DNA from: Escherichia phage sutha
Strand: one strand, 5' to 3'
Sequence record: PV245934.1
DNA: 64,000 bases
Both the position numbers and the translations under genes were made by a program. The notes under the pieces are model-generated. The model worked only from the letters and a program-made list of their open reading frames with translations. It was not told the DNA's origin and ran no database searches. Position 1 is the first letter of the stretch, and the number at the start of each line of letters is the position of its first letter. Shown here piece by piece: positions 40,151 through 41,932 of this stretch.

Positions 40151-40288
40151 CGTTTTGTGAAAAAATTTTTTAAAAAGTTTTAGGGAATTCTAGGGCAGGG
40201 ATGGGCAATTAAAGGATAGGATAATATATTATAAAGGGTATAAACTAAATGATGCCTAGAGAGGTCCAGAAAGGCCTAGATATCAAAA

Positions 40289-40317
40289 AGCCCCAACCTT
40301 TCGGTCGGGGCTAAAAT
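40289..40317 (-). terminator. GNRA-loop hairpin terminator; copy 1 of 29-bp direct repeat
   Basis: AAAAAGCCCCAACCTTTCGGTCGGGGCTA; in minus-strand RNA forms AGCCCCGACC-GAAA-GGUUGGGGCU followed by U5; identical copy at 40840-40868. Confidence 0.6.
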
Positions 40318-40318
40318 G

Positions 40319-40792
40319 TTATTTGATTTGTTTAGCAGACCAAATGCGGTCTTTAATAATTTTTTGGATGTCTTCAACATACTCTAGGTCATGAGCATGT
40401 GGGTTGTCTTTGAAACTATAAGCACGGGCTAACTTTTGGCCTTCGGTTTTGATTACTAAAAGCTCTTTAAGGATAGCTTCATATTTAGCGATAATTCCTT
40501 TAACAATATTTTTTTCTTGTGCAGCTTTAGGATCTGCTTTAGGAGCAGGTTTACCGGAAGGTTTTTCGAAAGCCGCACCAGTAGCAACCAGGCTTTTCCA
40601 GGCGGTGGTAACATAGTTACCCACAAAGCCTTCAGCTCTCATATCGTCGTAGAACTTGTACCGGGATTCATCAGAAGCATCTTTATAAGAATATTTACCA
40701 GCTTTAATAGCAGCAGTTGCTACAGCGCGAACATCTGAAGCGGATGCTTCATTTAACGCCACTTCATTTAAAAATTGAGCATATGATTTCAT
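40319..40792 (-). CDS. CTS-bearing internal-protein-like protein
   Basis: 157 aa; N-terminus MKSYAQFLNEVALNE resembles IP capsid targeting sequence with two L-N-E protease sites; preceded by late promoter. Confidence 0.5.
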   Translation of the reverse strand: MKSYAQFLNEVALNEASASDVRAVATAAIKAGKYSYKDASDESRYKFYDDMRAEGFVGNYVTTAWKSLVATGAAFEKPSGKPAPKADPKAAQEKNIVKGIIAKYEAILKELLVIKTEGQKLARAYSFKDNPHAHDLEYVEDIQKIIKDRIWSAKQIK

Positions 40793-40831
40793 CTTATTTC
40801 CTGTTTTAATTCGTGATTTAATATACTACTA

Positions 40832-40839
40832 TATTTATA
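40832..40839 (-). promoter_or_regulatory. late promoter (TATAAATA) for CTS-bearing gene
   Basis: Minus-strand TATAAATA about 40 nt upstream of ATG at 40792. Confidence 0.5.
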
Positions 40840-40868
40840 CCAAAAAGCCCCAACCTTTCGGTCGGGGC
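40840..40868 (-). repeat. copy 2 of 29-bp hairpin direct repeat (terminator-like)
   Basis: Identical to 40289-40317. Confidence 0.6.
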
Positions 40869-40869
40869 T

Positions 40870-41150
40870 AAGCCTTGCGGCAACCTTGTCGGGGTTCCAC
40901 CTGCTAAGGCAAGTGTTTGTACGAAACGCCGGGATTCGAACCCGGTTATTAAGCAGTTGACGCTACTCAATATTTTTAAAAGGCCATATCTCGACCATAT
41001 CCGAACGTTCCGTCAAAAACGCTACTCGGCTTACGGCAAAGATATTTCCTCGAATCGATAATTCGGTGCGCCGTTTCAGCTGTGATAGTAAAGAACCAGA
41101 ACACAGTAAAACTGTGGGAGGAACTATACTCCAGGGAACATCAGTCCGAC
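40870..41150 (-). ncRNA. putative small stable RNA locus (T4 species 1/2-like), boundaries approximate
   Basis: Non-coding 280 bp downstream of tRNA cluster with tRNA-like T-arm (GGGTTCGAATCCCGG) and paired ends CGAAACG/CGTTTCG about 140 nt apart. Confidence 0.4.
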
Positions 41151-41153
41151 GAC

Positions 41154-41708
41154 TTACCGGTAGCGACCCGGTTTCTCATTTGGTATTTCAAATTGTGTAG
41201 ATTTAGTATCTAATTTTTTAACTATGGAACTTATGTCATGAAAGAAAAACCATTCACTATTTATATGGTCCTGATTATAAATGCTGTGCATATATTTTTC
41301 AAGTTCTACTGCATCCTGGGAATATCTAAATGATACTATTTTAAAACTTTTAAACGGTGAAAATGTATTTGCTGTTATAACTCTAACATCAGGTTCTATA
41401 CTTCTTCCTATTTTATAATAATTAGGATTTGTAGTATCTACCATTATGTATACGAAAGCCTGTCGATAGCTTTTTTCTATATCAAATTCATCTTTAAATT
41501 TCAAAAGATTTAGGGCGGCAGTCCTACAAAATACTTTCCATTTTGACAAGCGTTTGGCTTTAGTCATAGAAAAGAATTTTTTCTTATCTGTTATTTTAAG
41601 AAAAGCAACATTTTCAATTAGTTCTTGTGTTATTTCAAAATTACCATGGTATATTAATCCAGCTTTTATAGCCAAATTAATTTGGTCCCAGTCTACATCA
41701 CTTCTCAT
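41154..41708 (-). CDS. T5orf172/GIY-YIG-like domain protein
   Basis: 184 aa; C-terminal half has AFVYIMVDTTNPNYYKIGRSIEPDVRV... resembling T5orf172 (KIG-x-S/T) motif; sits between tRNA-Arg and stable RNA locus. Confidence 0.5.
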   Translation of the reverse strand: MRSDVDWDQINLAIKAGLIYHGNFEITQELIENVAFLKITDKKKFFSMTKAKRLSKWKVFCRTAALNLLKFKDEFDIEKSYRQAFVYIMVDTTNPNYYKIGRSIEPDVRVITANTFSPFKSFKIVSFRYSQDAVELEKYMHSIYNQDHINSEWFFFHDISSIVKKLDTKSTQFEIPNEKPGRYR

Positions 41709-41729
41709 AATATTATTCTCTCAATAATT

Positions 41730-41806
41730 TGGCCAGGGTGAAAGGATTCTAACCTTTAACCTGCGGTTTAGAGGACCGCTACTCTATACAATTGAGTTAC
41801 ACCCCG
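41730..41806 (-). tRNA. tRNA-Arg (anticodon UCU)
   Basis: Cloverleaf folded by hand: acceptor CGGGGTG/CACCCTG, anticodon loop CCTCTAA, T-arm AAAGG-TTAGAAT-CCTTT, CCA encoded. Confidence 0.8.
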
Positions 41807-41912
41807 TAATTAGTTCACAGCAATACCTACTCCAACAATCAAGATGTCTTCACACGAAATTAAGAGAAGAGTGATCAGTTCAACCCCTATAACCGCGTCA
41901 AGTAGATATTAA

Positions 41913-41928
41913 TGTGACAATTGTCACA
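41913..41928. promoter_or_regulatory. perfect 16-bp palindrome TGTGACAATTGTCACA (CRP-consensus-like TGTGA-N6-TCACA)
   Basis: Read directly between tRNA-Asn and tRNA-Arg; flanks AA...AA extend consensus. Confidence 0.35.
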
Positions 41929-41932
41929 AATT

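Follow-up and report, generated by a model that had tools for sequence, protein, structure and literature searches.

The tRNA and stable-RNA cluster of Escherichia phage sutha (sequence record PV245934.1) was analysed in a stretch of 64,000 nucleotides, hereafter the window, with attention to an open reading frame (ORF) of 184 codons at 41154-41708 on the minus strand. The tRNA region of this Tequatrovirus was 94-96% identical to that of Escherichia phages UFV-AREG1, REP2/3 and LF82-9, and contained ten tRNA genes, all on the minus strand, between 41730 and 42682. The original prediction, made from the letters alone, had placed the ORF between tRNA-Arg and the putative stable-RNA locus. The start codon was indeed located 21 nucleotides after tRNA-Arg, but at the other end the two features overlapped, because the final 26 nucleotides of the ORF, which comprise most of an 8-codon tail and the stop codon, were shared with the 5' end of an rnaD homologue. 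No second copy of the gene was present elsewhere in the window. The features of the locus were as follows:

41154-41708, minus strand: nuclease-like gene, 184 residues, two-domain T5orf172/MUG113 type, ATG start (from the ORF listing, Pfam and PHROG matches, and the ratio of nonsynonymous to synonymous substitution rates, dN/dS)
41469-41708, minus strand: N-terminal helical domain, residues 1-80 (from the AlphaFold2 model)
41199-41459, minus strand: C-terminal T5orf172/GIY-YIG-like nuclease domain, residues 84-170
41154-41180, minus strand: locus-specific C-terminal tail N177-R184 (NEKPGRYR) and stop codon, encoded by the 5'-most bases of the rnaD homologue
41709-41729, minus strand: 21-nucleotide leader with Shine-Dalgarno-like GAGAG, from the tRNA CCA end to the ATG
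41730-41806, minus strand: tRNA-Arg(UCU), the gene-linked allele named tRNA-Arg' here (ARAGORN; Rfam 59.3 bits)
41807-41932, minus strand: 126-nucleotide spacer between tRNA-Asn and tRNA-Arg'
41065-41179, minus strand: homologue of rnaD (species 2 stable RNA), its 5' end overlapped by the ORF (T4 annotation mapped over)
40920-41058, minus strand: homologue of rnaC (species 1 stable RNA; T4 annotation mapped over)
40846-40869, minus strand: intrinsic terminator ending the tRNA/stable-RNA transcription unit, with a G+C-rich stem of 10 bp and a run of T after it

The family of the 184-residue protein was determined by profile searches, and the proposed T5orf172-type motif in the C-terminal half was borne out. 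The motif FVYIMVDTTNPNYYKIGRS occupied residues 85-103, and over residues 85-155 two Pfam families exceeded their cut-offs, namely MUG113 (PF13455; 36.0 bits, cut-off 22.3, E 1e-8) and T5orf172 (PF10544; 28.2 bits against 20, E 2.9e-6). The homologues of KpV477, K36 and T5 likewise scored above the cut-offs of the family hidden Markov models. The canonical GIY-YIG family PF01541 remained below threshold in Pfam (13.1 bits, cut-off 22.6), so the GIY-YIG likeness that had also been proposed held for the predicted fold described below and not for this profile. PHROG 5032, a family of unknown function, matched residues 1-176 with E 2e-58, endonuclease and homing endonuclease PHROGs gave weaker matches, and the NCBIfam search returned no family. 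When 1.84 billion representatives were searched with a profile, 2,824 proteins were retrieved at E<1e-3 but only 29 at E<1e-10.

The AlphaFold2 model built from 13 sequences was confident, with a predicted local distance difference test score (pLDDT) of 89.8 and a predicted template modelling score (pTM) of 0.85. The N-terminus (residues 7-73) formed a four-helix domain with helices at 7-15, 28-37, 42-47 and 50-73, and the C-terminus (residues 84-169) a beta-beta-alpha-beta-alpha arrangement. The latter had the GIY-YIG alpha/beta fold and matched the GIY-YIG domains of SLX1, PD-T4-3 and I-TevI. Full-length matches in a Foldseek search of viral models, with template modelling (TM) scores of 0.65-0.72, came from Aeromonas phage 44RR2.8t and T5-like phages. 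In the N-terminal domain the motif W..CRTAALNLLKFK was invariant among close relatives, and distant ones retained (R/K)xxA(A/G)LNLLKxK. The first 80 residues had no Pfam match and no confident fold match, a CxxC...CxC zinc finger was not found in them, and a single conserved cysteine (C61) was present in the aligned close relatives. This helical domain is presumed to be the target-recognition module.

Seven residues (Y87, K99, G101, R109, P118, E137 and E152) were invariant in 35 full-length relatives of 20-56% identity, and G84 and W153 were kept in at least 90% of the same alignment. These positions correspond to the GIY / YIG / Arg / Glu core of the superfamily. E137 was equated with I-TevI E75 and Odn E180 by motif position, for which no significant alignment was obtained. 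When the family profile was compared by hhalign with an approximate sequence of the I-TevI catalytic domain, the GIY/YIG/Arg region was aligned as would be expected, but with a probability of 3.5%, which was not significant and was not used as evidence; when all chains of the PDB were searched by sequence with the family profile, none was hit even at E 10. Against four diverged homologues (VR7, ESCO10, AV110 and ESh27) the dN/dS was 0.12-0.14. By this ratio and the confident AlphaFold2 model the ORF is not a chance reading frame, and the gene is real, intact and under purifying selection.

The segment 41154-41186 was 100% identical to the junction between the tRNA-Arg end and rnaD of T4, and homologues at other sites, as well as the PHROG profile, aligned to residues 1-176 only, leaving the tail NEKPGRYR outside. 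The leader AAATTnATGAGnATAAnATT was conserved across all T4-like homologues irrespective of the upstream tRNA. The 126-nucleotide spacer was common to ph0021, where it lies upstream of tRNA-His; neither a predicted tRNA nor an Rfam family was found in it. The best sigma-70-like match of the region was located inside the ORF at 41274-41302 on the minus strand (TTGAAA-17-TATAAT, 11/12) and was directed at rnaD and rnaC. The promoter scan gave 8 such sites against 7.9 in shuffled sequence; since this count did not rise above the shuffled sequence, no promoter is claimed, and the match at 41274-41302 may be a chance product of A+T-rich DNA.

The gene was found to belong to a conserved cassette. 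Positions 41200-41910 were 98-100% identical to UFV-AREG1 and teqskov, compared with 82-86% in the adjoining rnaD and 76-82% in tRNA-Asn. The sliding identity to the same two phages stayed at 97-100% up to about 41912, a range that takes in the proximal part of the 126-nucleotide spacer (to about 41910), and then fell to 76-82% in tRNA-Asn. Against the Gaprivervirus VR7, the segment 40842-41807 was the sole aligned part (92%), with flanks of 69-81% or unalignable, and the alignment pattern of the Dhakavirus ESCO10 was similar. The rnaD allele and the tRNA content differed among cassette carriers. In teqskov (locus L011, 4577-5276) the cassette was present in the absence of tRNA-Thr, tRNA-Ile(CAU), tRNA-Tyr and tRNA-Asn, and the order was tRNA-Ser, about 208 nucleotides and tRNA-Arg'. 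Judged by the identities of cassette and flanks in UFV-AREG1, teqskov, VR7 and ESCO10, the unit of tRNA-Arg' and gene has spread recently, into differing backgrounds and across genera.

The tRNA that accompanied the gene was itself a divergent allele. tRNA-Arg' was 56% identical to the tRNA-Arg of T4 and 65% identical to that of ph0021, and the allele (at least 95% identity) was confined to carriers of the ORF in 15/15 records. Position 33 of tRNAs is near-universally U. In tRNA-Arg' it was C (anticodon loop CCUCUAA), as it was in VR7, ESCO10 and AV110, and the related gene-less tRNA-Arg alleles of VR20 and RB32 had U33. The whole lineage had the T-loop UUAGAAU, in which position 56 is A, its D-loop lacked GG, and the T-arm DNA of tRNA-Arg', GGTTAGAATCC, departed from the SegB motif GGTTCRANTCC. 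In VR7 (locus L007, 2375-2451) and AV110 (locus L013, 3047-3123) the gene was immediately preceded by a tRNA-Arg(UCU) that ARAGORN detected and that the GenBank records leave unannotated. The proposal that one tRNA-Arg had accompanied the gene through all T4-like genera was rejected, as the tRNA-Arg of KpV477, X20 and PS2 was only about 52-55% identical to that of the window and the upstream tRNA of ESh27 was tRNA-Met.

The distribution of the gene was sporadic. At least four states of the junction upstream of rnaD were distinguished. In T4 and RB32 the junction was empty, the CCA end of tRNA-Arg being followed after 1-2 nucleotides by rnaD; in VR20 an unrelated ORF of 79 residues sat between tRNA-Arg and rnaD; in ph0021 and most Tequatroviruses the order was tRNA-His, tRNA-Arg and an unrelated ORF of 116 residues without a Pfam match; and in the window and a minority of others it was tRNA-Arg', the T5orf172-type gene and rnaD. 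The cassette was covered by 10 of the 979 phage records that matched the region, and 25 records held at least 80% of the ORF at the nucleotide level; the ORF was carried by about 2% of the related T4-like records. The same ORF was thus not a common property of T-even genomes, being absent from T4, RB32, ph0021, VR20 and about 98% of the related T4-like records. Presence or absence at one locus among relatives, conservation of the gene and its flanks far above the surroundings, and transfer between lineages were all observed, and the original idea of a mobile, nuclease-like insertion is supported by them.

Two of the small ORFs at the junction were considered as relatives of the nuclease gene and discarded: the 79-residue ORF of VR20 as a truncated remnant was unsupported (BLASTP E 0.053), and the 116-residue ORF of ph0021 was unalignable. 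The 116-residue ORF of the junction in ph0021-type Tequatroviruses (located at L008, 1443-1787, L013, 2143-2487, and L002, 1879-2229) stood directly downstream of the T5orf172 gene in Mosigvirus phages ESh27 and AV110, and therefore the small ORFs of this hotspot combine as modules. The sequence ATACCA before rnaD was also examined as a remnant of the 3' end of T4 tRNA-Arg after a replacement and discarded, since it encodes the Ile-Pro of a C-terminal motif, F-x-(I/L)-P, that homologues at other sites also keep. The hexamer CCAAAT occurred at both insertion junctions (41176-41186, ...GGCCAAATTATT...; 41724-41733, ...TACCAAATGAGA...) and once at the empty T4 site. The repeat could be a microhomology (6 nucleotides at most) of the original insertion, or the usual CCA and AAU trailer of T-even tRNAs.

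Variation was also seen in and beside the stable-RNA genes. The central part of rnaD (about 41085-41150) existed as two distinct alleles, one of the window/ph0021 type and one of the T4/UFV-AREG1/RB32 type, both ends being conserved, and the nuclease cassette adjoined either allele. Further downstream, an ORF of 157 residues (40319-40792, minus strand) was contained in a block at 40315-40836 between two near-identical terminator hairpins, AGCCCCGACCGAAAGGTTGGGGCTTTTT (about 40282-40314 and 40837-40872). T4 was without this block, its similarity to the window ending at 40314 and restarting at 40837, and the annotation of RB32 reads 'flanked by 34 bp imperfect direct repeat'. The block looks like a further small insertion beside the stable-RNA genes.

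Placement between tRNA genes was found to be a habit of the family. Context was assessed at 29 loci, 17 from phage records and 12 metagenomic, which were partly related to each other and are not a full census; 27 of these 29 (17/17 and 10/12) were tRNA-adjacent, with at least 10 different tRNA pairs. Overall, the start codon lay 4-23 nucleotides past a CCA end and/or the stop codon -33 to +9 nucleotides from the next tRNA. In all T4-like homologues the ATG was 15-23 nucleotides past the CCA end, and the leader carried a Shine-Dalgarno-like GAG(A/G). The upstream tRNA was tRNA-Arg' in the window, VR7, ESCO10 and AV110, a different allele of tRNA-Arg(UCU) in KpV477, X20 and PS2, and tRNA-Met in ESh27, and the gene of KpV477 and X20 had its stop codon inside the following tRNA-Thr. 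The more distant metagenomic members kept this layout: in 10 of the 12 a tRNA started -33 to +8 nucleotides from the stop codon, and in 7/12 a tRNA ended 4-21 nucleotides ahead of the start codon. Of the two exceptions, one had adequate flanks but no tRNA, and the other lay on a contig too short for a judgement. Scans of IMG/VR for further loci returned near-identical copies of known isolates only.

The same inter-tRNA placement was found in the T5-like and Aeromonas T4-like relatives, which were 27-41% identical, in the following contexts:

T5 (ORF065): tRNA-Cys, gene, tRNA-Asn
SSP1: tRNA-Tyr, gene, tRNA-Glu
Riker: tRNA-Tyr, gene, tRNA-Asn
KKP_3711: tRNA-Asn, gene, tRNA-Asp
44RR2.8t.2 and phiAS4: tRNA-Tyr, gene, tRNA-Lys
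Eps7: gene, tRNA-Lys
K36 and Gostya9: gene, tRNA-Arg(UCU)

The arrangement tRNA-Tyr, 6 nucleotides, tRNA-Glu of T5 corresponded to tRNA-Tyr, gene, tRNA-Glu of SSP1. The flanking tRNA-Tyr and tRNA-Glu of SSP1 were strongly divergent from those of T5, and the DNA immediately upstream was identical, which parallels the pattern of tRNA-Arg' in the window. Decayed copies were detected as well, frameshifted in phiAS4 and truncated in Eps7, and such stages of decay fit the expectation for a homing cycle. No description of this inter-tRNA habit of the T5orf172 family was found in open-access papers and bioRxiv, a scope outside which older Russian-language work on endonucleases of the T5 tRNA region falls.

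These results suggest that the gene is probably a free-standing homing-endonuclease gene, from the T5orf172 branch of the GIY-YIG superfamily, which inhabits inter-tRNA spacers. Judged from the layout, it would be transcribed as part of the tRNA operon, and its translation would use the minimal 21-nucleotide leader at the CCA end of tRNA-Arg. Because the 3' end of the gene reaches into rnaD (in relatives, into a tRNA), precursor processing would truncate the message and hold expression low; transcript processing is a known brake on the T4 homing endonucleases segB and segG (PMC2988022). During co-infection with a gene-less relative, the protein would cut or nick that genome in or beside a tRNA gene of the cluster, with the N-terminal helical domain recognising the target and a Tyr87 / Lys99-x-Gly101 / Arg109 / Glu137 / Glu152 core performing the cutting. 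Recombinational repair would then copy the gene and its flanks out of the carrier genome, and the divergent flanking tRNA allele would be a form of the target that resists cleavage and has been co-converted. Such an element is well placed in the spacers between tRNAs, since the tRNAs are excised from the transcript whatever intervenes.

The closest functional parallel is SegB of T4, whose homing takes place in the same cluster and whose recognition motif lies in the tRNA T-arm (PMC2330249). Both are free-standing nuclease genes of the same fold superfamily, located in the same T-even tRNA cluster and absent from close relatives, and joint movement with neighbouring tRNA genes is expected for both. 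The original prediction of an insertion in the hotspot of segB was right as to the cluster and not as to the position, which is the tRNA-Arg/rnaD junction here and the Ile/Arg interval for segB. Its view that the element differs from segB was confirmed. The nuclease domain is C-terminal here (residues 84-170), whereas Seg-type proteins have an N-terminal PF01541 GIY-YIG domain and a C-terminal DNA-binding region; with the order of domains reversed, PF01541 below threshold and sequence similarity limited to superfamily motifs, the protein does not belong to the Seg type (SegA-G). Cleavage and homing have been demonstrated for SegB, whereas here they are inferred. On the best reading, the gene is an analogue of SegB that comes from another family and occupies another junction.

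Within the T5orf172 family, ICP1 Odn is the only biochemically characterised nuclease, a proven DNA endonuclease whose activity is abolished by mutating the equivalent Glu (PMC8263062). Barth et al. proposed the T5orf172 proteins of ICP1 and T5-like phages as homing endonucleases; their work surveyed essential-gene neighbourhoods, did not mention adjacency to tRNAs and stated that T4 has no T5orf172 genes (PMC10448857). Our protein shares with these proteins and Odn the C-terminal Pfam nuclease domain behind an N-terminal module, presumed here to serve in targeting, as well as the sporadic distribution and the position at recombination boundaries. The ICP1-type proteins differ in that most carry a CapR/DUF723/DUF4397 zinc finger or RepA_N, which the 184-residue protein does not. 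T5 ORF065 and its T5-like homologues belong to the same two-domain family (27-41% identity, full-length TM scores of 0.65-0.72) and share the inter-tRNA placement, but occur in another phage family and with other flanking tRNAs. The T5-like homologues were annotated as 'hypothetical', 'T5orf172 domain' or, in some BASEL phages, 'putative homing endonuclease', and no experimental characterisation of them or of ORF065 was found in the literature searched. The nuclease domain was also shared with the defence nucleases PD-Lambda-1 and PDC-S57 of PADLOC (E 1.6e-5 to 5e-4). These are larger bacterial proteins with other modules, whereas the gene studied here is phage-encoded and lies in the tRNA operon of a lytic phage; about 75-90 residues of its nuclease domain matched models of 212-496 positions, which does not make it a member of a defence system.

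It is possible but unlikely that the nuclease has been domesticated to the benefit of the phage, with mobility as a by-product. Breaks in the tRNA cluster would then promote duplication, exchange or amplification of tRNAs against tRNA-cleaving host defences, or would exclude competing phages. A precedent is given by SegB, which drives tRNA-Tyr amplification that escapes Septu and whose homologues are enriched beside tRNAs (PMC13096335); the strong purifying selection on the gene, its tight and repeated association with tRNA genes in two phage families and the unusual C33 anticodon loop of the linked tRNA-Arg would also be consistent with a benefit. However, carriage by about 2% of the related T4-like records is low for a generally useful function, and amplified tRNA segments were seen in none of the loci examined. 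The proposal moreover overlaps with homing and does not exclude it.

The occupation of the junction by the unrelated ORFs of VR20 and ph0021, neither of which has a nuclease signature, and the 116-residue ORF right behind the nuclease gene in Mosigvirus, which points to freely recombining modules, could also be taken to mean that the gene is passive cargo. It would then be one of several interchangeable small ORFs shuffled through the tRNA cluster by general recombination, with a biochemical role unrelated to its own spread. This is quite improbable, as it leaves unexplained both the placement between tRNA genes at 27/29 loci, across unrelated families of phages and 10 or more tRNA contexts, and the conservation of the catalytic core. 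An RNA-acting protein or non-cutting nucleic-acid binder, such as a processing factor for tRNA and stable-RNA precursors or a nuclease directed at a host tRNA-Arg, for which the linked, atypical tRNA-Arg of the phage would substitute, would agree with a gene embedded in the tRNA precursor transcript and overlapping rnaD, with the linkage to tRNA-Arg(UCU) in most T4-like carriers and some T5-like relatives and with the UniProt domain name 'T5 Orf172 DNA-binding domain', but is highly improbable, because those GIY-YIG and T5orf172 enzymes that have been characterised act as DNA endonucleases (Odn, PMC8263062), the neighbouring tRNA varies and may also be Met, Tyr, Cys, Asn, Gln or Gly, and the catalytic residues are kept.

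The reading as a homing endonuclease can be extended, in a form that we regard as decidedly speculative and unlikely as a whole. The two-domain T5orf172 family would then be a dedicated tRNA-gene-targeting nuclease that drives the turnover of tRNA clusters in T4-like, T5-like and uncultured phages. Its cassettes would move with their flanking tRNA alleles, and some of these, such as the C33 tRNA-Arg(UCU) with its atypical T-loop, would have been selected for resistance to host anticodon nucleases or to rival homing endonucleases like SegB. The whole would amount to a mobile anti-defence tRNA module whose expression is throttled by tRNA processing.

About 15 T4-like genomes in the databases already include the 184-residue gene, labelled 'hypothetical protein', and the element is otherwise of an ordinary kind; the parts worth attention are the family-wide placement between tRNA genes and the linked atypical tRNA-Arg. 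For annotation, such T4-like 'hypothetical proteins' can be relabelled as putative T5orf172-type homing endonucleases. The placement at 27/29 loci across two phage families leads to the hypothesis that the target lies within tRNA genes, and suggests a 'safe harbour' logic comparable to that of intron-borne endonucleases. The unusual linked tRNA-Arg may bear on the role of phage tRNAs in counter-defence. If the reading as a homing endonuclease is true, at least two unrelated families of nucleases, the Seg type and the T5orf172 type, would compete for the tRNA clusters of T-even phages at different junctions, and this contest would help to explain the variable tRNA content among otherwise near-identical phages.

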